From assembly GCF_056746865.1 (NCBI RefSeq), contig NZ_JBWKMP010000003.1: 64,000 bases of DNA; one strand, 5' to 3'. Made by a program: the position numbers and the translations under genes. Under the pieces are notes generated by a model, which was not told the origin of the DNA, ran no database searches, and was given only the letters and a program-made list of their open reading frames with translations. This document shows positions 6,860 through 64,000 of this stretch, piece after piece. Each line of letters opens with the position of its first letter. Position 1 is the first letter of the stretch. Origin of the DNA: a plasmid.

Positions 6860-7510
6860 ATGAATAACATGCCAACGAAAGAGCTTTTTAAGTTCCTTCC
6901 CAAATACAAAGCTCACAAAAACGTTAGTGCATCGAAAATTAAAAATGTTGTTATTTTCGGAGTAACTGATGCCCCACTTTGGGGCTGCATCGAACTCGTT
7001 GAACCAAAAGGGGCAACAGTTTGTGTTGACGCAATGTTTTTACAAAAACACCGACCAAAAACTGGCGGGTATCTGATCGTTTATGAAAACGGTTATCTGT
7101 TCTATGCCCCGGAGAAACCATTTGAGGAATGCTATGGCCTGGTTAACGACGCCTCCAAAAATGGAACCACGGTCATCATTACGGATGACAACGGCGTGAT
7201 GATTAATCTTACTGGGAGCGTAACTATTTCTGCTGGTGGCATCACCACCCAGCAAGAAGAAATCGACCTTGAAGCAGCCGACTTCTCTGATGCGCTAATG
7301 TGGTTGAAGGAAGGCAAGAAAGTTGCCCGACGCGAGTGGAAAGGCGAAAAGCAATTCTGCTGGTTAGTTCTCGCTGGAAGCGTCAATTTACACGGCATTC
7401 ACGTTCCTTATGGTGACCATTTTGTATTGAAAGATGCACAAAATATGGACAGCGTTTGGTTGCCGTCTGTGGATGATTTACTGGCCTGTGACTGGTTTGT
7501 TGTGGAGTGA
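6860..7510 (+). CDS. fusion protein: unknown N-terminal domain plus C-terminal DUF2829 (Tad2-like) domain
   Basis: C-terminal ~75 aa (FSDALMWLKEGKKVARREWKG...WLPSVDDLLACDWFVVE) matches the DUF2829 pattern as recalled; GAGGAAAGG Shine-Dalgarno. Confidence 0.55.
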   Translation: MNNMPTKELFKFLPKYKAHKNVSASKIKNVVIFGVTDAPLWGCIELVEPKGATVCVDAMFLQKHRPKTGGYLIVYENGYLFYAPEKPFEECYGLVNDASKNGTTVIITDDNGVMINLTGSVTISAGGITTQQEEIDLEAADFSDALMWLKEGKKVARREWKGEKQFCWLVLAGSVNLHGIHVPYGDHFVLKDAQNMDSVWLPSVDDLLACDWFVVE

Positions 7511-25715: not shown

Positions 25716-25818
25716 GAAAACACACAGTTGCGCCCTGGCATTATCGTGGGGTATATTTCTACGGCACCTTAGAAAAACGGGTGCCGGGATTGGAACCCCG
25801 GATAATGTCAAAGGCGAC

Positions 25819-25846
25819 ACAGACGCCGAACGCGTCTTTTTTTGTG
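25819..25846 (+). terminator. hairpin with T-run between target site 1 and the c4-like RNA
   Basis: AGACGC-cgaac-GCGTCT followed by TTTTTTGTG; short stem. Confidence 0.35.
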
Positions 25847-25892
25847 TCATGCCATCGCACAGCCATACTTAGCGTTTAGCTCAGAGATCAAT

Positions 25893-25972
25893 GGTAGTGC
25901 TGGCTGGGCTGCCGAAAGGCAGGCCGGTTCCCTTTGACGCCGGTAGTTCCAACCCAGTCAGTGCTACCGCCA
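25893..25972 (+). ncRNA. c4-like antisense regulatory RNA (immI-type)
   Basis: About 80 nt; acceptor-like stem GGTAGTGC / GTGCTACC followed by G-CCA; internal GNRA hairpin CTGCC-gaaa-GGCAG; single-stranded CCCTTTGAC and GTTCCAACC complementary to sites at 25787-25814 and 25975-26020. Confidence 0.4.
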
Positions 25973-26028
25973 TTGAGATTGGAACCTCACGCGGTAGCTC
26001 CTTAACTTAGTCAAAGGAGGCTGCCAAT

Positions 26029-36885: not shown

Positions 36886-37533
36886 GTGAGTCTTTGTGAT
36901 TATACAGGGAATATGGTTTCCCCCTGGCTGGAACACGGCATTGATGCAGTCATTGTCGATCCGCAACACCAGGAGTCCGGCAGCCAATTGATGGAGTCAG
37001 GTGCTGTACTCACACGTATCAGCGCAATTATTGACAGTGATGAGGTCTACAATTTCCTTCGGAAAAATTTGCACAGAGTTGTATTTTTAGCCGGTTTCCC
37101 TCCATGTACTGACCTGGCTGTATCTGGCGCACGCTGGTTCGCAGATAAAGCAAAAAAAGATCCGGTTTTCCAGTTCAAAGCAATGCAGGTTGTCTGGCAG
37201 TGTTACGACATTGCAAAGATGATTGGTTGCCCGTACATGATTGAAAACCCGGTCAGCCAAATATCGACATTCTGGCGTAAACCTGATCACATATTCCATC
37301 CTTATCACTTCACTGCATATTGCAAGGAAGACAATTACACCAAAAAAACATGCCTGTGGAGCGGACAAGGATTCATCATGCCAACTCCGCGAATCGACAA
37401 GTCGTTAGGTGATCCAGATAACCGAATACACAAGGCACCGCCAGGGCCTGAAAGAGCGAATTTTCGTAGCGCGACACCTTACGGTTTTGCAAGAGCTGTA
37501 TTTGAAGCAAATAAGGAGGGAATCCGTGGCTGA
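36886..37533 (+). CDS. DNA cytosine-5 methyltransferase-like protein (start uncertain)
   Basis: PC-type motif GFPPC and ENP(V) motif; GTG at 36886 chosen as the first start after the rdgC stop; overlaps the dam start by 8 nt. Confidence 0.45.
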   Translation: MSLCDYTGNMVSPWLEHGIDAVIVDPQHQESGSQLMESGAVLTRISAIIDSDEVYNFLRKNLHRVVFLAGFPPCTDLAVSGARWFADKAKKDPVFQFKAMQVVWQCYDIAKMIGCPYMIENPVSQISTFWRKPDHIFHPYHFTAYCKEDNYTKKTCLWSGQGFIMPTPRIDKSLGDPDNRIHKAPPGPERANFRSATPYGFARAVFEANKEGIRG

Positions 37534-38285
37534 TATTGGTGCTAAATTTATTTCTTATAGCGACAATCATCGTCCTGCGGCGGAAGCCACTATCAGCCAT
37601 ATGCGACGTATTCGCTCGGAGGACGAATTTGATCGCCCAGTCTTTAAGTGGGTCGGCGGCAAATTTTCTGCACTGCCCATTATCTTCGAACACCTGCCCC
37701 ACGGAAAACGGTTGATAGAACCTTTCGTTGGAGGTGGCGCTGTTTTCACTAATGCCGGATTTAAAAGCAACCTGCTGAACGATATCAATAATGACCTGAT
37801 TAACTTCTATCAGACATTGCAGCGTGAAGGGCATTCTCTTATCACACTGGCATATCGTTTTTTTCAGGATTACAACTCTGCTGATGCATTTTTGAATGTT
37901 CGCAATGCATTCAACAATGGTGCTTATGATTCCCTTCACCATGCAGCGGCGTTCCTGTATCTCAATCGTCATTGTTTTAATGGCGTCACTCGCTATAACC
38001 GTAAAGGAGAGTTCAACGTCGGATATGGAAAGCAGAAATCACCCCACTTCCCTCTCGCGGAAATGGAGGCGTTCCTGGCTGACGATATTTCAAAGTATTC
38101 GGAATTTGTGTCCGGCGATTTTGCTGGTGTAATTGAGGCTGCCGGGAATGATGATGTGATTTTCTGCGATCCCCCCTATGAACCATTGCCTGACACTACC
38201 GGATTTACAAATTACTCAGGGCATAGCTTTAGGTTTGAAGATCAACAACGGCTGGTGTCACTGCTGGTGGATGCTGGATTTGCCC

Positions 38286-39191
38286 CTATATTTCCAGACA
38301 CCTGTTATCACTTAACCCATTACTGGCCCGCTGCCGTAGATATTCCCGTGGCGAGCGATAACCCAGTGCACTATGCGGATGCCATTCGTTATAATGCTCG
38401 AACGCCTCTGCAAGGTTCTTTGCTGCCGTTAACCCGTCTGGTTTAGGCATGATACTGATGTAGTCACGCTTTATCGTTTTCACGAAGCTCTCTGCTATGC
38501 CGTTACTCTCCGGACTCCGCACCGCCGTGTTCTTCGGTTCAAGCCCCAACATCCGGGCAAACTGCCGTGTTTCATTAGCCCGGTAGCATGAACCATTATC
38601 CGTCAGCCACTCTACTGGAGACGCCGGAAGCTCGTTGCCGAAGCGGCGTTCCACCGCTCCCAGCATTACGTCCTGTACTGTTTCACTGTCGAAGCCGCCC
38701 GTAGTGACTGCCCAGTGCAGTGCCTCACGGTCACAGCAGTCCAGCGCGAACGTGACTCGCAGTTTTTCTCCGTTATCACAGCGGAACTCGAACCCGTCAG
38801 AGCACCATCGTTGATTGCTTTCTTTCACGGCCACTTTGCCAGTATGTGCCCGTTTCGATGGCGGTACAGCGGTTTTTCGCTCAAGCAACAGCGCATTCTG
38901 GCGCATGATCCGGTAAACACGTTTGGCATTGATCGCAGGCATACCATCAAGTTCGGCCTGTCTGCGAAGCAGCGCCCATACCCGACGATAACCATACGTG
39001 GGCAGCTCTCCGATAACATGGTGTATACGGAGAAGCACATCCGTATCATCTGAGTGACGGCTGCGGCGACCATCTTTCCAGTCATCGGTTCGTCTGAGAA
39101 TGACGTGCAACTGCGCACGCGACACCCGGAGACAACGGCTGACTAAGCTTACTCCCCATCCCCGGGCAATAAGGGCGCGTGCGCTATCCAC
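38286..39191 (-). CDS. insD: IS2 transposase InsD (orfB)
   Basis: 301 aa, very close to IS2 InsD as recalled ([38 protein letters not shown]..). Confidence 0.9.
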
Positions 39192-39514
39192 TTTTTTGCA
39201 CGCCCGTATTCAACGGCTTCTTTAAGGAGTTCATTTTCCATCGTTTTTTTGCCGAGCAGGCGCTGGAGTTCTTTAATCTGCTTCATGGCAGCAGCAAGTT
39301 CAGAGGCAGGAACGACCTGCTCTCCTGCGGCCACAGCAGTAAGACTTCCCTCCTGGTATTGCTTGCGCCAGAGAAATAACTGGCTGGCTGCCACACCGTG
39401 TTGCCGGGCAACAAGGGAGACCGTCATTCCCGGTTCAAAACTCTGCTGAACAATAGCGATCTTTTCCTGTGTAGTACGCCGTCTGCGTTTCTCCGGTCCT
39501 AAGACATCAATCAT
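39149..39514 (-). CDS. insC: IS2 InsC (orfA)
   Basis: [26 protein letters not shown]..; start at the internal ATG of the track ORF. Confidence 0.85.
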
Positions 39515-39780
39515 CTGCTCTCCAATGACTAGTCTAAAAACTAGTATTAAGACTATCACTTATTTAAGTGATATTGGTTGTCTGGAGATTCAGGGGGCCA
39601 GTCTAGATGCCCACAGACGCGGAGCGAAAATTGTGATAACAAACAGTGGTGCGCCTAACATTCGCGAACTTTACGTTGGCAATGGCTTCAAGGTGTATCC
39701 TATGCCATCCCGTCGCTCTGTATCCTGTAAAGCATCAACGCGAATGATAGCTAACGACATTATAGCCACACTTAATTAAG

Positions 39781-52619: not shown

Positions 52620-52910
52620 TGAGGGCAATATCTACACCTGCTGTTTACGTCAATGATGGCATTTTTTACACATCACAACAAAATCAACGCGTTACAACCA
52701 TAAAACATTCAACAGTAGTGCGATAAAAATAGCTATAGCATACGATGCCATCTGAGGGTGATTTTTACACATTCCTTATTAATCAATAAATTACAAATAA
52801 TGTTAGCCGTTAAAGATCCAACCAACTAACTAATGATGTAAGAATTGCCCTCAATCTCCCATCTTTAAGGGCAAATCCTACACCTACAGAGAGGTGTAGA
52901 AATTGCCCTT
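52620..52910. repeat. incA-like iteron cluster downstream of repA
   Basis: About five ~21-bp copies in both orientations, for example TTGAGGGCAATATCTACACCT (52620) and TAAGGGCAAATCCTACACCT (52868). Confidence 0.5.
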
Positions 52911-53664
52911 AAGACTGCTGATAGGTGAATTTTATTTTTGTAACTCTGCCACCTTCTGTAACCTCTGAGAAAACTATTTTCATTTTTGTGTTTTTTTCGA
53001 TTTCAGCTACAGCTTTTGCCAGAAAGCTTCTCTTAAATTCGGCGTACCGTTGATAGCTTTTGGGAAGACCATAACGCTCCCGCATCCATTCAACGCCAAG
53101 TATAGCGAAGCCGCTCCCATCATCCTTTCTATACTGGCATAAGGACTCATAAAGCCGCATAGAATAAGGGTTTGTCAGGCGAGACACTTCAGTAAAATTC
53201 AGCCTCGTGAACCTCTTATCAAGCAGAGTAAAAAACGGCATGAGATATGGATTCAGATGAATAATGTAAGTCCCCCGGCGTGGTGAGTAAGCCTCCTTAA
53301 TCATCCAGGGATAAGACTCATAACTGTCTTCTGATTCGGTTGATTCATCAGGGTTATATATCGTGACTTTCTTCTCACTAAGTCCGGAGATAGCTTTACG
53401 AATATCCTTGCTGGCTTCAGCAGAGGGCAAATTATACATCTCTGCATATTCGTTGACCGTCAACTCACAGGCACCTGAACCAAGAACGCCATCCTTAGAA
53501 GCATAGCGAAGTCTTCCCACCACAATAAACAACAGTCGCTTTTGGTCGCGTGTCAGGTGATAAGCCGCCTCTGTGATCTCATTGGCCTGCGCCAAGCTAC
53601 GGCTAATTGGTGTCGCTGATTCAATCAGACTGACGGCTTTTGCCGTTAATTCCGCTCTGTTCAT
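52909..53664 (-). CDS. repA: RepA-type plasmid replication initiator (start uncertain)
   Basis: Call is contextual: no sequence motif was checked; sits between two iteron clusters with a DnaA box and AT-rich tract upstream. About 250 aa from ATG 53664. Confidence 0.55.
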   Translation of the reverse strand: MNRAELTAKAVSLIESATPISRSLAQANEITEAAYHLTRDQKRLLFIVVGRLRYASKDGVLGSGACELTVNEYAEMYNLPSAEASKDIRKAISGLSEKKVTIYNPDESTESEDSYESYPWMIKEAYSPRRGTYIIHLNPYLMPFFTLLDKRFTRLNFTEVSRLTNPYSMRLYESLCQYRKDDGSGFAILGVEWMRERYGLPKSYQRYAEFKRSFLAKAVAEIEKNTKMKIVFSEVTEGGRVTKIKFTYQQS

Positions 53665-53688: not shown

Positions 53689-53807
53689 TGAGGGCAATTT
53701 TTACATCACTTTGAGGGCAATTACTACACCTTTTGAGGGCAAATCTTACACCTGCTGAGGGCAAATCTTACACCTCAATAGCTTAATTGAGGGCAAATCT
53801 TACACCT
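53689..53807. repeat. origin iterons (incC-like): five direct ~21-bp repeats
   Basis: TGAGGGCAA(A/T)T(C/T)TTACACCT at about 53689, 53711, 53733, 53755 and 53787. Confidence 0.55.
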
Positions 53808-54926: not shown

Positions 54927-57900
54927 GTGGCGGGCACTCCATATGGAAAAAGCACTGGAAGAGAAATACAAAGCCCACGCCAAAAAAACAGGGTGATCAC
55001 CGCCGATGTAAGTGAGGTTATTTTGAACGATAAAAAAGACCGAATAGCGATAATCGACGCAATACAAACGGCAAACGCGAAAGAGCTAGCTGCGCTTTCA
55101 GAAATAAAAAAAGCACTTGAGTCTTACGGACGCAATCCTGATACCAGCGACGCACCACAAGGACGCGTAAGTCGTCGCCTGGCCCGAACAGGGAAAGCAG
55201 GGGCGCAACGCAACAGTTTCACACAGGGGCCGTATAAAGACCGGCTCCCTACCAGGAAACAGAGATTACGTATAAACAACACTAGCGAGATAGATAATCC
55301 GCAAAAAGCAGCAGCAGATCACCGCACCGCTCATTCGGAATCAAAAACAGCACCGCTGGCTGAAGGCAAAGCCACGAAGTCATCACCTGAGCGCATTCAA
55401 TCGCTCACTCCTGACATTCAGCCTGCAAGGCAAGAACAACCAGTTAGAGAAAACCAGAGCATCGCTGGTGCACCGTTACGGGATAGCAACGGACGATTTG
55501 CCTCTCAGAAAAAAAACGAGGATCTCGCACGCCAGAATGAGCTACGCGCACAGGCAAAACTACAGGTTGGGTTCCTGCGAAAACTCGGTTCCATTATGGG
55601 GGTTGATGGTTCAGGGAAAGCCGACGATGGAGCTGTAACCGATGCTGCCGGGGTAGGGGCTGGTGGTCCACTATGGATGGCAGCACGGGGCGTATTTGAT
55701 ATCAGCCGCGAGATTACTGGTAAGGCTAAATCATTGAAAGAATGGATAGATAATGGCAACGACAAGGCGGCTGGCGCACCGGTGGTCGCAAAAGCCCCCG
55801 CCATTACTTACCCGGCACCTGACAATGAAAGGAAGACTCCAGATAACGCGCCCGGTTCAGCAAAGGCATTTACTGAAGCCGTTAAAGAAAAATCTGTGCG
55901 TGCGATCGAAGAACAAACGAAAGTTCTTCAACGCAACGACAGCCAGATAATTGATGAGCTGGAAACTGTATCCGAAGAGATCCGGAAGCTAAGAAAGTCC
56001 CAGGAGAGTGGGCTAAAACTGAGCGACCTCCTCGGCGGTGGCAGATTACGCACCAAAATATCCCCTACACGCGGTCGTAGCAGTGCACGTGGTGGCAACA
56101 CGGGCCGCACTGGAGACAGTAAAGAAAACAAGGGCAAGAAGGGAAAAAACACCAGCAAACCTACTGAGACGGGCAGGAGTCAGGAAGGCAAAGAGGGGAA
56201 AAAAAATCAGCCAGGCAAAAACAACAGTGCGGGCGAGGAAAAAAATCGGACAAAAAATGCTGGTGGGAACGAGGGTAGTACCTCACCAAAATCATCGGGT
56301 GATAAATCTTCAGTTAAAACCAGAGCAGGTAAGGTCACTGAAGAAAGTGTAGCCAAAACGGCGACTGGTGGAGCGGCAGGGAAAGACGCTGGTAAAGCGG
56401 CAACTTCCGCTGGGGAAAGCCTTACCAGGAAAGAGGCGGGTAAGGTTGCCGTTGCCACTGGTGAAAACATCGCGAAAAAAGAAGCTGGAAAAGTGGCTCT
56501 CAAAGCTGCCGGAGGTGTTGCCGCAAGGGCCGGATTCAGGGCGATTCCAGTCATCGGCCAGGTGGCTATGGTTGGTTATGATGCCGTAGACGGCTACAGC
56601 GACACAGAAGCGCAGAGGGCGACTTATAACCTGAAGGAAGGGCAGGACGTTACAACACAGCAAAAGAGCGCCTACGCCGCTGCTAACGTCCTGGATATGG
56701 GCGGTCTGGTGACGGGAGCGGCTAACCTCATTGGCGAGGGGATGTCCGCGCTAGGCTTTGAAGGTGTCGGACAAAAACTTCAGAGTCTTGATACCAGCAA
56801 TATCGCTCGCGGCATAAATAGTTCTATCGACGCGTCGAAGAACGCATTCAGCAGCCTAAAAGAATCGTTCTCATCAAGCAGCGAAGGCACTGCGCAGGTT
56901 AAGAAAGCCGTTGAAGATGGCACCAAGCAAACGGTAGCCGCAATTAATGATCTGGCCCGACAGCTACAGGGCGGGCGCAGAGGTGAGGATGGCGTGGGTG
57001 AACACGGCTACAAATCGCCAGACGAATTTAAAGCGCCTGAAAAAAATACAATAACGGCTGATCTGAATATAGGCGGAAGCAACGCCAAGAACAGGAATTA
57101 CCGGAATAACAACCTGGGGAACCTGGTTTTTGCAAATCAGGAGGGGGCGGTACTGGAAGCGCCGAACGCGAAAGGCGAACAGCGTTTTGCGCGGTTTAAT
57201 ACGCCCGAAGAAGGGATTCGGGCATTGGCAAACCAGGTATCGAGTTATTACAACGGTACAAGTGCTGCCGCCGGGTATCAGAAGCTGCAAACAGTATCCA
57301 GCATCATTTCAAAATGGGCACCACCAACAGAGAACAACACCAATCAGTACATTGAAAACGTCAGCAAATATCTCGGGGTATCCCCCAACGATAAAATAGA
57401 CGTTAGCAACCCTGAAGTTATGACGCACCTTGTTCGCGCCATTGCGACGAAGGAGGGGGGTAACCCGGCGGTTAACAACAATTTCATCAAAACAGCTCTT
57501 GGTTCATTCAACGCTAAAACTGGGCGTTGGGAAGGGCAATTCAATGATGAAACGCTGGAACACATTAATAAAATCCAGAAGGAAAAGGGCGGTCCTCTAA
57601 TCGCTCGCAACTCCCAATATAGTGTCGGTAGCAAAGTCAAATACGCCAACGGCTCATCTTCTGCTATTCCTGCGTCAAGCGTAGCCCAGGCTGTAATGCC
57701 TAGCCCTACTGACGTGGTTCAACACGCACAGGCAGCTAAAAAACCGAAGGCAGCTCAACAGGAAAATGCCCAAGCGATCAGCCACGCGAAAGCTAGTGGC
57801 AATTCTTCCGCCGCAGCCGGATTGACGGAGCGGTTAATGAGTGCAGACGGTGTTGGGGGCGTCATCGCCGGGATAGTTGGGGGAGATCCCAATATGGGGC

Positions 57901-58790
57901 TAAATCTCGGCCCTGTCAGTTCTCCGGAAGAGATGTCCTCGTTAGCAGCAAAAGCCAAGCAATTGGATAAGTTTCTTGTTGAAAAAATATCCAGAGCAAC
58001 GGGCAAAAACTTTAGTTTCCAGAAGGCGGAACAGATCGCCGATATCACTACGGCTATACAGCAAAAGCGCAACGTTAACCGCGATACAGAAACCATTGGC
58101 CTGCTTCCGGAGAGTCCGGCAACCATCAGCGAGAAGCGTGCCACATCGACACCGGCGGGTGTGCAGATGTACGACAACGGCTACAAGGTGGTTGAAGGTG
58201 AGGACAGGGGCTTCTTTGGCTCGCTATTTGATTCAACTGTGTCAGGGCTTAACCAGGTAGGCTCCGCCGTCCTCCCCGCCGTTGGAGATAACCTCTCGCG
58301 ACTTGTGGGCGGTATTGATAGCACCGGAATGTTAAATGACTTTGTATTGCAGTCCTCTGGACAGAATACCGATGTTGCTCGCGCTATTAGTCCGTTAACA
58401 AGGAGTGTTGGCGGTTGGCTGAATGGTGGCATACAGAAAACGGCGGATACGATCAGGGACACAACTGGCGCAATCAATCAAAGCCTGTTTGCTTCGGGCG
58501 TGGCTGCTAAAGAACCGTTCCTTGCAATGCCTCCGCAGCTACCAATCGTCACGGACCTCGCACGAAGCGGAATAAGGCAGATGCTAACAACAGATACCGC
58601 AAATAACGATCCGGCTATGTTGAAAGCACTGGAGAACGTTTATTCCGTTCTTAAAGAGATTCTTGGCGTAAGCAAAGACAACCGCAAAGGCGATCAGGAC
58701 AAAGTTGTGAACACATCACAACCACAACCTCGTCAGCGTGCCAGCACGACTATCAATGACCCATCTCTTGACAAATTACTGGAGGATTAA
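54927..58790 (+). CDS. large virion-associated protein (tape-measure or injected-protein candidate; start uncertain)
   Basis: 1287 aa; central Gly/Lys-rich low-complexity tract; conserved-looking block NLGNLVFANQEGAVLEAPNAKGEQRFARFNTPEEGIRALANQV; no in-frame ATG near the 5' end. Confidence 0.45.
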   Translation: MAGTPYGKSTGREIQSPRQKNRVITADVSEVILNDKKDRIAIIDAIQTANAKELAALSEIKKALESYGRNPDTSDAPQGRVSRRLARTGKAGAQRNSFTQGPYKDRLPTRKQRLRINNTSEIDNPQKAAADHRTAHSESKTAPLAEGKATKSSPERIQSLTPDIQPARQEQPVRENQSIAGAPLRDSNGRFASQKKNEDLARQNELRAQAKLQVGFLRKLGSIMGVDGSGKADDGAVTDAAGVGAGGPLWMAARGVFDISREITGKAKSLKEWIDNGNDKAAGAPVVAKAPAITYPAPDNERKTPDNAPGSAKAFTEAVKEKSVRAIEEQTKVLQRNDSQIIDELETVSEEIRKLRKSQESGLKLSDLLGGGRLRTKISPTRGRSSARGGNTGRTGDSKENKGKKGKNTSKPTETGRSQEGKEGKKNQPGKNNSAGEEKNRTKNAGGNEGSTSPKSSGDKSSVKTRAGKVTEESVAKTATGGAAGKDAGKAATSAGESLTRKEAGKVAVATGENIAKKEAGKVALKAAGGVAARAGFRAIPVIGQVAMVGYDAVDGYSDTEAQRATYNLKEGQDVTTQQKSAYAAANVLDMGGLVTGAANLIGEGMSALGFEGVGQKLQSLDTSNIARGINSSIDASKNAFSSLKESFSSSSEGTAQVKKAVEDGTKQTVAAINDLARQLQGGRRGEDGVGEHGYKSPDEFKAPEKNTITADLNIGGSNAKNRNYRNNNLGNLVFANQEGAVLEAPNAKGEQRFARFNTPEEGIRALANQVSSYYNGTSAAAGYQKLQTVSSIISKWAPPTENNTNQYIENVSKYLGVSPNDKIDVSNPEVMTHLVRAIATKEGGNPAVNNNFIKTALGSFNAKTGRWEGQFNDETLEHINKIQKEKGGPLIARNSQYSVGSKVKYANGSSSAIPASSVAQAVMPSPTDVVQHAQAAKKPKAAQQENAQAISHAKASGNSSAAAGLTERLMSADGVGGVIAGIVGGDPNMGLNLGPVSSPEEMSSLAAKAKQLDKFLVEKISRATGKNFSFQKAEQIADITTAIQQKRNVNRDTETIGLLPESPATISEKRATSTPAGVQMYDNGYKVVEGEDRGFFGSLFDSTVSGLNQVGSAVLPAVGDNLSRLVGGIDSTGMLNDFVLQSSGQNTDVARAISPLTRSVGGWLNGGIQKTADTIRDTTGAINQSLFASGVAAKEPFLAMPPQLPIVTDLARSGIRQMLTTDTANNDPAMLKALENVYSVLKEILGVSKDNRKGDQDKVVNTSQPQPRQRASTTINDPSLDKLLED

Positions 58791-58795
58791 GACCG

Positions 58796-59170
58796 ATGCT
58801 TTATGAGATTGATGCCCGCCTTCAGACAAACGAGAGCGGGGTGGTGATCGCTGAAGGCGACACAAACGCCTGGATAGCCCGACTCGATGAATGGCTACGG
58901 ACACCAAATGGCAGCGTTTACGGATTTCCGTCATGGGGGAATCCGATGGAGGAGTTCAAACACGAACCCTTCGGTTCTGATACGTCACACATTGTTGAAG
59001 TGGCGATTGAAGCGCGAATGATGACGAAGCTACAGCAGGACTTACCAGGGCTTGGACTCCAGGCGATCCGCTGCGCGACTGTCTCTGAAGACCAGTTACT
59101 AATTAGCTTCCAGGCAAAAGGAGGCACCGTGAATGTTGTTATGCAGAAAGATAGCGGAGATACAGCGTGA
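58796..59170 (+). CDS. putative baseplate protein (gpW/gp25-like by position)
   Basis: 124 aa; stop overlaps the next gene. Confidence 0.3.
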   Translation: MLYEIDARLQTNESGVVIAEGDTNAWIARLDEWLRTPNGSVYGFPSWGNPMEEFKHEPFGSDTSHIVEVAIEARMMTKLQQDLPGLGLQAIRCATVSEDQLLISFQAKGGTVNVVMQKDSGDTA

Positions 59171-60597
59171 GTATTACCGAATTACTGGACAAGTTTAATG
59201 CCAAGCTGAACGAAAACCCCTGGTGGGCGCGATTTGTAAACAGCCAGTTTATTCAAATGCAGTCCGTTTTGGGCGCGCAGATTGTTTATATTGCGCGTAC
59301 ATTTGCAAGCCGTGCACTTACAGAAGGATTCATTTCCACCGCGACGCGTAGAGCAAGTATTCTCGCGGCAGCGGAAGACCGTGGCTATGTCGGTCGTTTG
59401 GTCGATGCGTCATACGGCACTGTTTCCATCACCAACAAAACCGACAGGGATATTACTCTACCCGGAGGGGCTGAATTACTGACAAGTGACCAGACACCAA
59501 TTGCAACCAGCAGTAGTGTTGTTATCCCTGCTGGTGAAACAGTACCCGGCATAGAAGTAAAACAGCATGAAGCAGTCAGCGTAACGTTCGACGTGGTGCA
59601 AGAAACACCATTCTTGACGCTGTTACTTTCCCGTGAGTTAACAGCAGAAGTCGCCAGCCTGGAAGTTGTCGTGATAACTAATGGTGTCGAGGAAAAATGG
59701 ACACATAACCCCCTGTTCCGCATGTCCAGGGATAACAGTAAACATTATGTGTTGGTTTATAAGCCGACAGAACAGATCGGCGTGCGCTTCGGTGATGGAT
59801 CAATGGGGATGATGCCAGCGGCAGGGAGTCAGGTACGCATTGATATTATGGCAAGCCTCGGTGATTACACGCTGGCTGAAGGCCAGAAACTTGAACCAGC
59901 AGGGAACATCTCCGGGTATGTCGAATCACTGGAAGTAAAAACCGATTCGATCATTTCTGGCGGTGGTGGCATGGAAACTACCGAGGAAACCCGAAACAGG
60001 GCGCAGTATTATGTGGCCTACGATGAGCAGGTTGTTTGGGGCGGTGATTACCGCCAGTTCATTCAGAACGTGGTCAGTGGCACGTCATGGCTTAACGTGT
60101 GGGGGGAGGCGCTACAGGAGAAAATCACGGGCTTTGATGTGCGTAATATCAACAAAATTTTCTTTTGTGGGCACAAGCCCGGCGTAACACAGGAAGCTCT
60201 GAAAACAGAGATATTATCAGCCCTTGAGAGTATCCCTAATGAGCTGAATAAGAAGTTCGAATACGTCGCCACCAATGAACAGCCGTTCAACATCAAATTT
60301 ACCGGTATCGTAAAAAAGAGTGTGCTGGTGGATGACGCGCTAACTGCAATTAAAGCGGCACTGGAGGAGAACTTCGGTAAAGACTCCATGTCATTTAGCC
60401 AGCTATTGCAGAGTGATGACGATTCACAGCAATGTTATGCACAGGTCAAAGTAAAAGATATCTGGCGAGTAATCGAATCGCTGGATATGTTCCTGTCTTA
60501 TGACGTGGCTACGCAGAACATGAAAGAAGCTGTGTACTTTAATGATTTTGTTTATCTGGACGTGGAATCATCAACGTTCAGCATAACCTATCCGTAA
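59167..60597 (+). CDS. putative baseplate J-like protein
   Basis: 476 aa; GTG start overlapping the upstream stop; placement between W-like and tail-fibre genes. Confidence 0.35.
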   Translation: MSITELLDKFNAKLNENPWWARFVNSQFIQMQSVLGAQIVYIARTFASRALTEGFISTATRRASILAAAEDRGYVGRLVDASYGTVSITNKTDRDITLPGGAELLTSDQTPIATSSSVVIPAGETVPGIEVKQHEAVSVTFDVVQETPFLTLLLSRELTAEVASLEVVVITNGVEEKWTHNPLFRMSRDNSKHYVLVYKPTEQIGVRFGDGSMGMMPAAGSQVRIDIMASLGDYTLAEGQKLEPAGNISGYVESLEVKTDSIISGGGGMETTEETRNRAQYYVAYDEQVVWGGDYRQFIQNVVSGTSWLNVWGEALQEKITGFDVRNINKIFFCGHKPGVTQEALKTEILSALESIPNELNKKFEYVATNEQPFNIKFTGIVKKSVLVDDALTAIKAALEENFGKDSMSFSQLLQSDDDSQQCYAQVKVKDIWRVIESLDMFLSYDVATQNMKEAVYFNDFVYLDVESSTFSITYP

Positions 60598-60606
60598 GAG
60601 GTCACA

Positions 60607-61449
60607 ATGCAGAATAACTGGCTAAAAGAGCGTCTGACGCAATTTAAACAGGATTCTAAATTGTGGGCCGCCTTTGTTGATACGATTCAGGACGTGTGGA
60701 ATGAATCGGTTGAACCTATTCTCACGCGAATAAGCAACCGTAAATCGTTTTTCACAATGGCAAGGGAGGATATGGACACTCGCATTGCTGAATATGGTCG
60801 TTTCTTTGTTATCACAGAAACGGACAAAACACGCAGGCCAATGCTATTAGCTCAACGACTGGATGAGGTGCACTTCAAAGGAACAGTAAGGCCGATAGAG
60901 CAAACGTTCTGGCGTGAATTTGGCACAATCCCCGTCTCATGGGAACCTTTGTATGCGCCTGTCGATACAGAAAAACATCCCTATGGTTCATTCTTCGCGA
61001 CCGCAAATGAAATACCGACCGCTCAGGCACAATATGGTGAGTTTTTCCTGACATCCAGAGGGCTGGTTGTCGTCAACCAAAATAAGCTGTATCGAGCTTA
61101 TGATAGCGATGACCGAGACGTTGCTGTACAGAAGCTACTTGCTGATTTTGATACGGTTATAGCGCCGCTATTGCCATTGCATATCGTGTTTGATGGTGTT
61201 TCTTTCCAGTTAAGCGCAACATTGCCGGAAATGGCGGAGATCCTGAATTGCTTATCTGCGGAAGTGTCCTTTATTGAGGGGGTGTACACGACGCAAGAGA
61301 TGGTCGATGAGCTATCTATTAGCGATACGATCATTCAAATAGGCGGCATCCAGTTCGCAGGAAGGCCAGACCGGACGACGGAAAGAGTGCTTCATCTCGA
61401 TGAACTCCCGCTCGACGCCTGGGCGCTGGATTATAATTTTGCACCTTAG
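60607..61449 (+). CDS. putative tail protein
   Basis: 280-aa ORF. Confidence 0.35.
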   Translation: MQNNWLKERLTQFKQDSKLWAAFVDTIQDVWNESVEPILTRISNRKSFFTMAREDMDTRIAEYGRFFVITETDKTRRPMLLAQRLDEVHFKGTVRPIEQTFWREFGTIPVSWEPLYAPVDTEKHPYGSFFATANEIPTAQAQYGEFFLTSRGLVVVNQNKLYRAYDSDDRDVAVQKLLADFDTVIAPLLPLHIVFDGVSFQLSATLPEMAEILNCLSAEVSFIEGVYTTQEMVDELSISDTIIQIGGIQFAGRPDRTTERVLHLDELPLDAWALDYNFAP

Positions 61450-61565
61450 CAAACCAGGCCCCGCCAACCTGGGTGGGGCCATTTCTCAAAACAAAAGACC
61501 ACTGGAAATCACAAACTGAACATACTGCCCTTCGATTTATTGCTTGTTAAAGGGGCTATGTTCGT

Positions 61566-62012
61566 ATGGCTGAAACTTTAAAATCCCAAAGCGATTCCAG
61601 TATTTACAAGGCGCAACTCCTTTCTTACTACTACTCTCGCCGTGCAGAGTCTGCAATCGGCAGAGGTGAGCGTTTTGTTATGACAAAGGCTTATTGGTGC
61701 AAGTCCGATCTTGTGACGGTAAATAGTGCTGGTGGCTGGACTATTTCTGATATTCCGCTCGACTTCAAGTTAAGTGATGCACAGCATTTTGCTGAATCCA
61801 ATCTCATTCTTTCCAGCCTCGATGGTGTCATTACGATTAATGCCGCTTTTCCACAAGAAACGATGCCGGACGATACACCTTACGATTTCAATACGCTGGT
61901 TCTCGTAGATGCAGAGGATCAGGCTTTTGGGGTTGTTTGTACTCAACAGGACACCTTATTCAAAGGTAAGCGATACAGCTTGCTCATGACCATTGAACAG
62001 GTCGAGGGATAA
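61566..62012 (+). CDS. hypothetical protein
   Basis: 148-aa ORF immediately before the tail-fibre gene. Confidence 0.4.
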   Translation: MAETLKSQSDSSIYKAQLLSYYYSRRAESAIGRGERFVMTKAYWCKSDLVTVNSAGGWTISDIPLDFKLSDAQHFAESNLILSSLDGVITINAAFPQETMPDDTPYDFNTLVLVDAEDQAFGVVCTQQDTLFKGKRYSLLMTIEQVEG

Positions 62013-62014
62013 TT

Positions 62015-64000
62015 ATGTGCGCAGATAAAGTAAAGAACATTGTCACCTTATCTTCGGACATTTCCGCTCCACTAATTGCAGACATGCAATACTTTGAGCT
62101 GTATAGCACCGAAGCTCTAAACAGGAAGATGAAAAATATCGTTCTGCCCGGTGTGTACTGTGGGTTTGAACCGGTGCCAGGGGATGGCCTGTTTGTGCGG
62201 ATTACATCCGAGAAAACAGAGGGAAGAGGGGCGGCTTCAGTTGACGTGGGTAAATGTCAGATATCCGTGCAGCAAGTCAGTGATGTTGTTGTTCCTGTAG
62301 AAGCAGGTGTAACGACAATCATCGTTCTTGAAGCTAATTACGAACATGGAGTGAAAACCAGCCAGGTAGATAGTTCATCGGATATTAGCGCAGCGAGAAT
62401 TATAGCTCTCGTTGATGAGGGCATAGCATCTAACCAGATTGAGCTATGCCGAGTGATCGTGCCTGACAATGCTCAAGCCGTTACCGCAGATATGATTAGC
62501 ACTAAATATCGCGCTAATCGTGCTGTAGGTGTTGAGTTCTCCAGTGCTTTGGATAGTGACGAAGAATATAAAGCTGCAACCCCCCTTGCTATCAGCACGT
62601 TAAATAAACTTAAAGCTCCGGTTGATAGCCCGGAATTTATAGGTATCCCTACATCTCCAACTCCGGAACAAGGTACAAACAGTACACAAATCGCAAACGC
62701 TGCCTTTGTTCAGGCCGCTATAACCGCACTTATTGATGGTTCTCCTTCAGCGTTGGATACGCTGAAAAAAATTGCAGATGCAATAAACAATGATCCCCAG
62801 TTTAGCCAGACGATTAATGATGCTTTAGCTCTTAAAGCGCCGTTATTAAGCCCGGCATTTACGGGGGTTCCAACAGCTCCTACGGCGTCACAAGGTACGA
62901 ACAACACTCAGATTGCAACAACCGCTTATGTTCGTGCCGCTATTTCTGCATTGGTCGGCTCATCACCAGAAGCTCTTGATACTCTTAATGAGCTTGCTGC
63001 GGCGCTGGGCAATGACCCGAACTTTGCGACTACAATGACAAATGCCCTGGCAGGTAAGCAGCCTCTCGACGCAACCTTAACCGCGCTCGCTGGCCTGGCG
63101 ACGGGGGCAAATAAATTACCGTACTTTACCGGAACAGACACTGTAGCCCAGACTGATTTAACGTCAGTCGGTCGCGATATTCTTGCTAAAACAAGCACAC
63201 TGGCTGTTATCCAATACCTTGGTTTAAGAGAACTCGGAACCAGCGGAGAAAAGCTCCCCCTGTTGAGCACAGCTAATACCTGGAGTGCACGCCAGACTTT
63301 CAGCGCGGGGATCACTGGTACGCTGACCGGGAACGCCGATACTGCGACGAAATTAAAAACAGCCAGAAAGATTAACGGTGTGGCATTTGATGGGTCGGCA
63401 GATATTACTCTGACCCCTGAAGATCTTGGCTTAACGGATATTGCTTCTCAAGCTGGTAACGCAGTTCAGCGTTCTGGCGACACAATGGGGGGGCAGCTAA
63501 AAATTGGCACAATAAATGCCCTTCGAATATTTAACCAGGACTTTGGCCTTATCTTCAGGAGATCCGAGGAATATCTTCATCTTATCCCGACAAATGAAGG
63601 GGAGGGTGAAAATGGTGACATCGGGCCATTAAGACCATTTTCTATAAACTTAAGAACTGGGTTGGTGTCCATCGGTAACGGCGTAAAAGTTGGCGGTGGT
63701 ATTACTGGTAATTTGACGGGAAACGCAGATACTGCCACAAAGCTCAAGACAGCTCGAACGATCGGCGGAGTGTCATTTGATGGCAGCGCCAATATCGACC
63801 TGCCTGGCGTGAATAAAACAGGTAATCAGAGCACTACCGGCAATGCTGCAACCGCAACGAAACTTCAGACGGCACGCACAATCGGCGGAGTGTCATTTGA
63901 TGGCAGCGCCAATATCGACCTGCCTGGCGTGAATAAAACAGGTAATCAGAGCACTACCGGCAATGCTGCAACCGCAACGAAACTTCAGACGGCACGCACA
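62015..64000 (+). CDS. tail fibre protein (3'-truncated by window end)
   Basis: ATG with GAGGG Shine-Dalgarno; open for 662 codons to the window edge; repeated tail-fibre motifs (SPxFTGxPTAPTAxQGTNNTQIA, GxLTGNADTATKLKTAR..GVxFDGSA). Confidence 0.7.
   Translation, partial: MCADKVKNIVTLSSDISAPLIADMQYFELYSTEALNRKMKNIVLPGVYCGFEPVPGDGLFVRITSEKTEGRGAASVDVGKCQISVQQVSDVVVPVEAGVTTIIVLEANYEHGVKTSQVDSSSDISAARIIALVDEGIASNQIELCRVIVPDNAQAVTADMISTKYRANRAVGVEFSSALDSDEEYKAATPLAISTLNKLKAPVDSPEFIGIPTSPTPEQGTNSTQIANAAFVQAAITALIDGSPSALDTLKKIADAINNDPQFSQTINDALALKAPLLSPAFTGVPTAPTASQGTNNTQIATTAYVRAAISALVGSSPEALDTLNELAAALGNDPNFATTMTNALAGKQPLDATLTALAGLATGANKLPYFTGTDTVAQTDLTSVGRDILAKTSTLAVIQYLGLRELGTSGEKLPLLSTANTWSARQTFSAGITGTLTGNADTATKLKTARKINGVAFDGSADITLTPEDLGLTDIASQAGNAVQRSGDTMGGQLKIGTINALRIFNQDFGLIFRRSEEYLHLIPTNEGEGENGDIGPLRPFSINLRTGLVSIGNGVKVGGGITGNLTGNADTATKLKTARTIGGVSFDGSANIDLPGVNKTGNQSTTGNAATATKLQTARTIGGVSFDGSANIDLPGVNKTGNQSTTGNAATATKLQTART
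63761..64000 (+). repeat. 120-bp tandem repeat within the tail-fibre gene
   Basis: 63761-63880 is repeated identically at 63881-64000 (ATCGGCGGAGTGTCATTTGATGGCAGCGCC...), encoding a 40-aa unit. Confidence 0.8.

Follow-up and report, generated by a model that had tools for sequence, protein, structure and literature searches.

Results

The fibre gene and its neighbourhood

The window (the whole stretch of plasmid DNA that was analysed, 64,000 nucleotides) ends inside a large gene whose frame is open from position 61997 to the edge, with an ATG at 62015. The gene, the one directly upstream, and the features of its constant part are as follows.

61566–62012, plus strand: homologue of P1 gene R (PHROG 2032, E 1.4e-69), directly upstream of the fibre gene
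62015–64000, plus strand: S-like tail-fibre gene, first 662 codons, cut by the window edge
62627–63070, plus strand: older, diverged tandem duplication of 222 nt (74 aa) in the constant part, equivalent to P1 b1/b2
63208–63238, plus strand: cixR-type Cin recombination site, TTATCCAATACCTTGGTTTAAGAGAACTCGG, at the boundary of the constant and variable parts

The original prediction had called this a tail-fibre gene, and rightly so: by homology it is the counterpart of gene S of P1 and of the long tail fibre gene of D6, carried on a D6-like E. coli phage-plasmid of ∼90 kb. The open reading frame matches the tail-fibre family PHROG 454, shares 82–83% nucleotide identity with S of P1 and P7 over window positions 62669–63411 and 75% with D6 over 61504–63381, and encodes an N-terminal constant part homologous to P1 Sc, as is characteristic of protein S of the P1/D6 type. 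The gene order sit, pmgA, bplA, gene 16, R, S, and U (chaperone) was matched in the window, P1, D6, and the nearest plasmids, the window's open reading frames in that order being 54927–58790, 58796–59170, 59167–60597, 60607–61449, and 61566–62012, followed by the fibre gene. Gene R has the same position in P1 and D6, and the identical gene in relatives belongs to Pfam family Phage_P1_tail_fiber_R; the relatives' neighbourhood also contains Phage_P1_Gp16 and Caudo_TAP, the latter being the chaperone gene directly after the fibre gene. Upstream of R, no match to the P1 late promoter (LPs) was found, and the region resembles D6. Minus-strand open reading frames overlapping the repeat array described below (e.g., 63577–63792) were taken as chance occurrences, the plus-strand gene being well supported.

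The constant part carries a second likeness to P1, in which the intragenic repeated elements a0, a1, b1, and b2 have been annotated; b1 and b2, of ∼222 nt, lie at the homologous place. The two halves in the window (62627–62848 and 62849–63070) agree at 43 of 74 amino acids and 132 of 222 nucleotides, and in the protein this region gives a weak match to Phage_fiber_2 together with a match to a collar fibre in the PDB.

The cixR-type site is identical to the annotated cixR of both P1 and D6. Both of these phages possess Cin, an invertible C segment, and the alternative genes Sv' and U'; the window's nearest relatives have instead a single fixed distal part. A search of the window and of 13.7 kb of the nearest relative gave no second cix site with six or fewer mismatches. 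The region beyond the window edge was assessed in the nearest relatives only (L001–L006), where neither inverted fibre genes nor a second cix site were present and the genes run in the order S, chaperone gene, lydA; the sole trace of cin there is an 87-nt stretch with 80% identity to part of the D6 cin gene. Inverted fibre genes are kept in L009 and L019.

An exact, in-frame 120-nt duplication

Downstream of cixR, the gene is built from copies of a 40-codon unit and from non-repeat sequence.

63329–63448, plus strand: unit 0, an isolated diverged copy of the 40-aa unit, GNADTATKLKTARKINGVAFDGSADITLTPEDLGLTDIAS, with its motif at aa 439 (repeat family D2)
63449–63718, plus strand: 90-aa non-repeat domain between unit 0 and the array, the spacing from unit 0 to unit 1 being 130 aa
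63719–63838, plus strand: unit 1 (K'), with a distinct 42-nt head and a body identical to that of unit 2
63839–63958, plus strand: unit 2 (K), GNAATATKLQTARTIGGVSFDGSANIDLPGVNKTGNQSTT
63959–64000, plus strand: first 42 nt of unit 3, matching the head of unit 2 exactly and cut by the window edge
63761–64000, plus strand: exact period-120 stretch in the register of the original prediction, 240 nt, reaching the window edge

Two perfect 40-codon units had been predicted at the edge, and direct comparison bore this out, 63761–63880 and 63881–64000 being identical at 120 of 120 positions. When the window was shuffled five times, the best unit match reached only 50–52 of 120 positions. Tandem Repeats Finder reports a single array (63747–64000, period 120, 2.1 copies), and neither strand of the window holds a further full copy of the unit. 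Codon 583, counted from the ATG at 62015, begins at position 63761, and the units follow each other head to tail with a period that is a multiple of three (120 nt, 40 codons), leaving the duplication in frame; the register of the units in the protein is shifted by 42 nt from that used above. A degenerate copy had also been proposed to precede the pair. The periodicity does continue ∼45 nt upstream (63716–63760), but what lies beyond is the unrelated 90-aa domain. There is in addition a remote partial copy 390 nt upstream (63303–63393 versus 63693–63783, 74% identical).

The units have the 40-residue consensus GNAATATxLxTARxIGGVSFDGSANIxLPGVNxxGNQxTS. Units 1 and 2 are identical at 105 of 120 positions, and their 15 differences fall at third codon positions in 13 cases; unit 0 shares 52–62% nucleotide identity with the other units. 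The 90-aa domain is weakly similar to tail fibre S of Mu (PDB 5yvq), and it is missing in L009, where units directly follow unit 0.

Because the window ends inside the array, of which it contains the first 2.35 units, both the number of copies in its array and the remainder of the gene were inferred from relatives. The nearest complete relatives have five array units in a full gene of 1,169 codons. Their protein consists of a 443-aa P1 Sc-like N-terminus, one unit, 90 aa, five units, 94 aa, three units, and a 187-aa Gp53-like tip. Unit 3, whole in L001, differs from unit 2 by 1 nt, and the K unit is present zero to three times among relatives.

The unit as a protein module

The unit was found in 4,912 protein cluster representatives (E ≤ 1e-3) and in 92 phage records. 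It is shared, often in tandem and bracketing inserts, by P1-like E. coli phage-plasmids, P7 (Sv'), RCS47, SSU5, 9g, and Goslar (as a "tail fiber repeat protein"), and it occurs, often in tandem runs around inserted domains, in distal fibres of Acinetobacter T4-like phages and in cyanophage fibres; all of these differ from the window's gene in their N-terminal anchors, tips, and unit numbers, and none is the same gene. P1 S has one unit, at aa 491, as compared to the 1 + 5 + 3 of the window-type gene. For D6, a motif search found no unit in the expressed S, and tblastn located remote copies, at 40% identity, where the invertible segment has the gene annotated S'.

No Pfam or NCBIfam model covers the unit, and 32 three-unit segments searched against Pfam gave matches at chance level. 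The sole match to PF03406 (Phage_fiber_2), at aa 174–198, lies outside the 40-aa units, and its score of 17.4 bits is below the gathering cut-off of 22. Searched against PDB sequences, neither the whole protein, nor the array together with the 94-aa domain, nor a profile of 32 sequences gave a significant match to the unit. One marginal match (E 0.11–0.13) was to the C-terminal spike of the Dec protein of phage L (6e3c), with which the unit has in common the core motif A-x-TA-x-KL-x-TAR-x-I...FDGSAN (E about 0.1). The authors of that structure modelled the spike region as a trimeric three-stranded beta-helix on T4 gp34 (template 4UXE); unlike the unit array, Dec has no tandem repeat, and the model is a low-resolution homology model. 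An AlphaFold monomer predicted from the single sequence was of low confidence (pLDDT 45), and one predicted with an alignment (pLDDT 67, pTM 0.27) had one beta-hairpin per unit in an otherwise extended chain; a Foldseek search of the PDB with the AlphaFold monomer model gave no match. A full-text literature search with unit peptide strings returned nothing relevant, and the literature on D6-like and P1-like plasmids discusses divergence of the tail-fibre operon and loss of the C segment with nothing on the 120-bp repeat.

Copy number and rearrangement among relatives

The window's fibre sequence is closely matched in other plasmids. NZ_LR890273.1 and NZ_JBTZPF010000006.1 differ from it by one synonymous change (62728) over 1,986 nt, and the nearest sequences (L001, L002, L016, L017, and L024) differ from it by 1–5 nt. 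No record in the phage, plasmid, or E. coli genome collections matched it at 100% identity. The exact period-120 stretch is 248–354 nt long in the nearest relatives; by allele, its length rises from 179 nt in the four-unit drafts to 299 nt in L001, 354 nt in L024, and 474 nt in L022.

The original prediction named an assembly artefact as what would undo it. The duplication could then be a spurious extra copy, or the end of a contig circling an unresolved repeat loop, in a true gene with one K unit. The repeat does fall exactly at the window edge, and related draft contigs and partial proteins often stop inside the array, at aa 582–689, showing that assemblers do fail there. However, assemblers usually collapse tandem repeats and seldom expand them, the duplication is in frame and extends a conserved protein repeat, and the 662-aa partial product is absent from the records as a contig-end gene. 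Moreover, at least two identical or near-identical K units are present in L001–L006 (complete or RefSeq "complete genome" records) and in L024 (an ENA metagenome scaffold), and the two or three K units of L001, L002, L003, and L024 carry lineage-specific SNPs: G at unit position 102 in all three K-type bodies of L024, A at position 87 in both K units of L003. A spurious duplication is thus very improbable; assembly errors at this locus would more likely take the form of lost copies and of contigs that stop in the array. That neighbouring copies within a lineage have private SNPs in common fits concerted evolution.

A comparison of copy number had been proposed as a check, and its outcome depends on the kind of record. 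The three-unit allele is a MEGAHIT k119 short-read metagenome contig that equals L001 minus a clean 240 nt, and the four-unit alleles, from NCBI draft contigs, match the window exactly apart from 120 nt (assemblies behind the draft and metagenome alleles: L015, ERZ19697101; L016, GCA_013355905.1; L017, GCA_053309115.1). The five-unit span was found in 7 of 7 close relatives in the complete-genome collection. The three- and four-unit alleles, the commonest variants, may therefore be assembly collapses, and a census of 120 homologues that had looked like a clean ladder of two to six units was downgraded accordingly. Such records would suit an array that is real but stable at five units, with most public copy-number "polymorphism" produced by short-read collapse at a locus that is not actively varying; the exact period-120 stretch (299–354 nt) exceeds usual k-mer and read lengths, and the partial proteins ending within the array point the same way.

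Collapse cannot, however, produce all that was observed. In L022, a six-unit allele, K' is followed by three identical K units, and L023 has six units, with copies distinguishable by SNPs, as compared to five in L004. L006 has the unit order K/I/K/I. The gene of L007, from the complete plasmid pMUB-MIN14-1, is the L001 gene minus 882 nt, in frame and with one other mismatch, and its breakpoint lies in a 14-nt identity between unit 1 of the first array and unit 1 of the second. In complete P1-like plasmids the first array has two (L020), three (L019 and L021), or four (L018) units, and L018, L020, and L021 share the same N-terminal length (∼620 aa). Inserted domains of 94, 216, and 237 aa were always flanked by units in the 120 homologues, and more distant proteins have many unrelated inserts set between units. 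We thus regard the six-unit, rearranged, and deleted alleles as real and a stable five-unit array as the less probable account, and the original suggestion that recombination between units alters the length of the protein is backed by these alleles. The receptor-binding tip was the same across the copy-number alleles compared.

Discussion

We consider it very probable that the 120-bp repeats are genuine in-frame structural modules of 40 residues in the distal, variable half of a P1 S-type fibre of a D6-like E. coli phage-plasmid, and that recombination takes place at these units. The array lies between two non-repeat domains of ∼90 aa each, 3' of an intact cixR, and relatives differ by whole units or by modules bracketed by units, with breakpoints within unit homology. 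The identity of adjacent copies would stem from recent unequal crossover, replication slippage, or gene conversion between neighbours, and every unit would add a fixed segment to a trimeric fibre shaft. The conserved units could also act as joints, providing the homology by which fibre genes swap domains and receptor-binding tips, and such exchange would be a more plausible route to a new host range than a change in copy number. Effects of unit number on fibre length and on host range are putative.

A less eventful account is that the duplication is a recent neutral event in a tolerant spacer, adsorption and host range being indifferent to the number of units. The same N-terminus and tip are found with arrays of anything from two to six units, and we saw no link between unit number and host. 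Set against this is the strong conservation of the unit's protein sequence over thousands of fibre proteins, which, with the excess of third-position differences between units 1 and 2, points to purifying selection. This conservation indicates that the units are structural; it is no argument that their number matters. Neutrality of the copy number is thus a possibility to be taken seriously, although we think it the less probable outcome.

The opposite view makes the array a contingency locus of the VNTR type, at which frequent copy-number switching in lysogens would give fibres of varied reach and partly replace the lost Cin switch. Exact repeats of this kind are long enough for both RecA-dependent events and slippage, copy-number differences do occur on otherwise identical sequence, and the nearest relatives keep cixR with no second cix site and only the cin-like remnant. 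However, assembly collapse is most likely for precisely the variants on identical backgrounds, and the receptor-binding tip is unchanged; from the sequences compared, frequent switching appears improbable. A broader conjecture, on which we would place equally little weight, is that with the Cin switch lost the identical 120-bp units supply both a fast recombinational length switch and universal joints for distal modules, the unit being a widespread, uncharacterised fibre fold. If so, the virions of one lysogen population would carry fibres able to reach through different thicknesses of O-antigen or capsule.

Recombination at units, our preferred reading, has a precedent in the T-even phages. 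In the account of T-even adhesins given in PMC3157838 (citing Tetart et al. 1996, 1998), adhesin genes exchange parts at conserved motifs, and the phages gain a wider host range through small duplications in gp37. As that account describes gp37/gp38, recombination at conserved motifs within the fibre genes duplicates or swaps small domains, and this is where the likeness to the window's gene lies. The T4 duplication treated there (PMC3157838) differs in affecting a domain of the receptor-binding adhesin, with a demonstrated effect on host range, whereas the repeat described here is in a shaft-like region and known from sequence.

In adenovirus, the number of short repeats in the trimeric fibre shaft sets the length of the fibre and varies by serotype. 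The adenovirus shaft, with its 15-residue triple beta-spiral repeats, is unrelated to the window's array in sequence and fold, and it belongs to a eukaryotic virus.

Two practical consequences follow. Since short-read assemblies break at the array or may collapse it, draft genomes are an unreliable source for the lengths and "alleles" of the fibre gene, and plasmid contigs frequently stop at this point. Because the unit occurs in thousands of fibre proteins with neither a curated family nor an experimental structure, a structure of the trimer would be useful for annotating many phage fibre genes, and, as the units mark natural junctions of domain swaps, it would also help in the engineering of fibres. 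We see in this array a routine case of tail fibres being built and diversified from repeated modules, and a well-delimited example of it in the clinically common D6/P1-like phage-plasmids of E. coli; variation in the number of such blocks among relatives is an ordinary way in which phage fibres evolve.

Results

Positions 63761-63880 and 63881-64000 are identical at 120 of 120 positions, and Tandem Repeats Finder reported one array only (63747-64000, period 120, 2.1 copies), bearing out the original prediction of a perfect 120-bp tandem duplication at the window edge. When the unit was scanned over the whole window, copies were found solely at 63719 (105/120) and 63839 (120/120); in shuffled windows (n = 5), the best match was at most 52/120. 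The exact period-120 stretch covers at least 240 nt, up to the edge. The related degenerate copy said to precede the duplication was recovered only in part: periodicity persists for ∼45 nt (63716-63760), with mismatches mainly at third codon positions, and 390 nt upstream there is a remote partial copy (63303-63393, 74% against 63693-63783), but beyond the ∼45 nt the period-120 signal ends at an unrelated 90-aa domain.

The duplication is in frame with an ORF (preceding stop at 61996, ATG at 62015, open through the window edge) that is homologous to gene S of bacteriophage P1 and to the long tail fibre of phage D6. Nucleotide identity is 75% to D6 over 61504-63381 and 82-83% to P1/P7 S over 62669-63411, and the genes 5′ of the ORF (sit, pmgA, bplA, gene 16, and R) follow the P1/D6 order. 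In the nearest relatives, the full-length protein matches PHROG tail-fibre families and has a Pfam Gp53-like_C domain at its C-terminus; the gene is followed by one for tail-fibre assembly (Caudo_TAP). The repeat is real, and its location and assignment to a tail-fibre gene were right.

Over its full length the window aligns collinearly with NZ_LR890273.1, a 92.8-kb plasmid of E. coli, at 99.3-99.7% identity; this D6-like phage-plasmid has RepB, ParM, pacase, portal, DarA, and toxin-antitoxin genes. Because the fibre-gene part inside the window (1,986 nt) has one synonymous difference from NZ_LR890273.1 and NZ_JBTZPF010000006.1, both were used to read the gene beyond the edge, which for the window itself is inference rather than observation.

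Elsewhere, mosaic accessory regions are replaced or strongly diverged relative to NZ_LR890273.1 (8294-9368, 10615-13928, 14400-17198, and 31755-32626), and a 1.33-kb insertion, absent from that plasmid, with minus-strand IS2-like InsC/InsD ORFs (∼38274-39606) breaks a Dam-like DNA adenine methylase ORF (37409-38446). Just upstream of repB (∼52909-53664, minus strand), a 22-bp unit, TGAGGGCAAATCTTACACCTTT, occurs in 3.9 tandem copies (53689-53775), probably the plasmid's iterons. Rfam matches above the gathering score are to isrK (25764-25842, 61 bits) and C4 antisense RNA (25887-25974, 77 bits), the P1/P7 immI-type immunity RNA, beside icd-like and ant-like genes (a relative's annotation).

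In the relatives the fibre gene encodes 1,169 aa, arranged as follows.

Features of the fibre gene (coordinates from the window; otherwise from the relatives)
N-terminal part, 438 aa (relatives), containing an older diverged 74-aa tandem duplication
62627-62848 and 62849-63070: this diverged 222-nt (74-aa) duplication, in the constant part; halves identical at 43 of 74 aa; corresponds to the annotated repeated elements b1/b2 of P1
63208-63238: intact cixR (Cin recombination site), identical to that of P1 and D6
63329-63448: isolated unit
63449-63718: 90-aa domain
63719-63838: unit 1 of array 1
63839-63958: unit 2
Window edge: unit 3, first 42 nt only
Array 1 (relatives): five tandem 40-aa units, following the 90-aa domain
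94-aa domain (relatives), after the five-unit array
Array 2 (relatives): three further units, after the 94-aa domain
Tip (relatives): C-terminal 187 aa, after array 2

Units 1 and 2 (types K′ and K) differ at 15 positions, all within the first 42 nt of the unit and 13 of them third codon positions. In L001, a relative from the complete-genome collection, units 2 and 3 are one base apart, with period 120 holding exactly for 299 nt. Since the window's stretch of at least 240 nt exceeds the 179 nt of four-unit alleles, its array would be of the five-unit type or longer, if the remaining gene resembles the relatives.

A spurious duplication is an unlikely origin of the repeat, because near-identical K units, two or three per gene, are carried by L001, L002, and L003 (complete-genome collection) and L024 (a metagenome scaffold), each with its own SNP pattern; L004-L006 also have this five-unit array, its copies being more diverged. 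Public data show the reverse problem. The 90%-identity protein cluster of the five-unit fibre has 172 members and is represented by a 689-aa fragment, and seven among 15 listed members (P0273, P0277, P0279-P0281, P0283, and P0284) are partial proteins ending inside the array, at aa 582, 591, 592, 597, 624, 632, and 689, on contigs that, with one exception, are about plasmid-sized (∼90 kb). The array is therefore a point where short-read assemblies break, and they may collapse it as well. Two other proteins (P0276 and P0278; 400 aa, ending ...TSTLAVIQ) come from draft contigs that stop exactly at the cix site, as would be expected if C-segment inversion persists in these plasmids and both orientations were present in the culture.

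Among 120 homologues, 92 have an N-terminus >95% and a tip >85% identical to those of L001; they differ by number of K units, and their lengths form 40-aa-step ladders (1049, 1089, 1129, 1209; 835, 875, 915). Inserted domains of 94, 216, or 237 aa have units on both sides in every case. Not every step of these ladders is secure. The traced three-unit allele (a MEGAHIT k119 metagenome contig) is L001 minus a clean 240 nt, and the traced four-unit alleles (NCBI draft contigs) are the window sequence minus 120 nt, each otherwise identical; such alleles on identical backgrounds came only from the short-read metagenome contig and draft assemblies, whereas the five-unit span is present in all seven close relatives from the complete-genome collection, so these alleles may be assembly collapses.

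Other alleles show variation of a kind that collapse could not produce. Six units are present in L022, where K′ is followed by three identical K copies, and in L023, where SNPs tell the copies apart (L004 has five); the order in L006 is K′/I/K/I. All three K-type bodies of L024 share G at unit position 102, and a private A at position 87 marks the two K units of L003; such sharing is the hallmark of gene conversion, or of a duplication that followed the mutation. The L007 gene (complete plasmid pMUB-MIN14-1) equals that of L001 except for a precise 882-nt loss, in frame, that fuses unit 1 of array 1 to unit 1 of array 2 inside a 14-nt identity, and one further mismatch in 2,628 nt; the same 875-aa product recurs in further sources. 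Among complete P1-like plasmids of equal N-terminal length (∼620 aa), the first array has four, three, or two units, and another plasmid has three; P1 itself has one.

When the five-unit segment was run with HMMER against 1.84 billion cluster representatives, 4,912 proteins, from widely differing phages, matched at E ≤ 1e-3, of which 2,426 also reached E ≤ 1e-10. Diverse three-unit runs (alignment A1; proteins P0121-P0269) give the consensus GNAATATxLxTARxIGGVSFDGSANIxLPGVNxxGNQxTS. Residues that never vary in any of the units are L, R, I, G, F, G, I, L, G, V, G, Q, and T. By tblastn, the unit occurs in 92 phage records, including Goslar ("tail fiber repeat protein"), P7 Sv′, RCS47, SSU5, 9g, Acinetobacter T4-like distal fibres, and cyanophages, and in more distant proteins two units flank many unrelated inserts. 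Neither Pfam nor NCBIfam has a model for the unit, and no solved structure matched it significantly; the sole match, marginal at E ∼0.1, was the C-terminus of phage L Dec protein, a region that its authors modelled, with T4 gp34 as template, as a three-stranded trimeric beta-helix (PMC6449081). AlphaFold monomer models, in which each unit forms one beta-hairpin, had low confidence and gave no Foldseek match. From context and the weak Dec lead, the units may form a trimeric shaft segment.

Discussion

The array lies ∼480 nt downstream of cixR; in P1 and D6, this part of S is variable and can be inverted. In the nearest relatives, we found no second cix site and no inverted Sv′/U′ genes (the alternative fibre genes of the C segment), and of the invertase gene cin only an 87-nt stretch, 80% identical to part of D6 cin (L001 ∼6880-6965). 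The Cin inversion switch therefore appears to have been lost in them and the fibre gene fixed in one orientation; C-segment loss has been described in P1-like plasmids (PMC6906374).

The best-supported reading is that the units are both structural modules and recombining joints. As shaft modules they would be under purifying selection, and adjacent identical copies would come from slippage, conversion, or unequal crossover. When units recombine, module number would change and whole unit-bracketed domains would be lost or gained, and the units could serve as homologous joints for swapping distal parts among fibre genes. The scheme agrees with T-even adhesin genes, in which conserved motifs are the sites of exchange and host range can be expanded by small duplications (PMC3157838, citing Tetart et al. 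1996, 1998). Because the tip domain is the same across copy-number alleles, it is speculative that copy number by itself would alter host range. We found no paper on this 40-aa/120-bp tail-fibre repeat. In practice, it is chiefly a lesson on how far assemblies can be trusted. Phage fibre genes were already well known to contain modular repeats, of which the array is a new instance.
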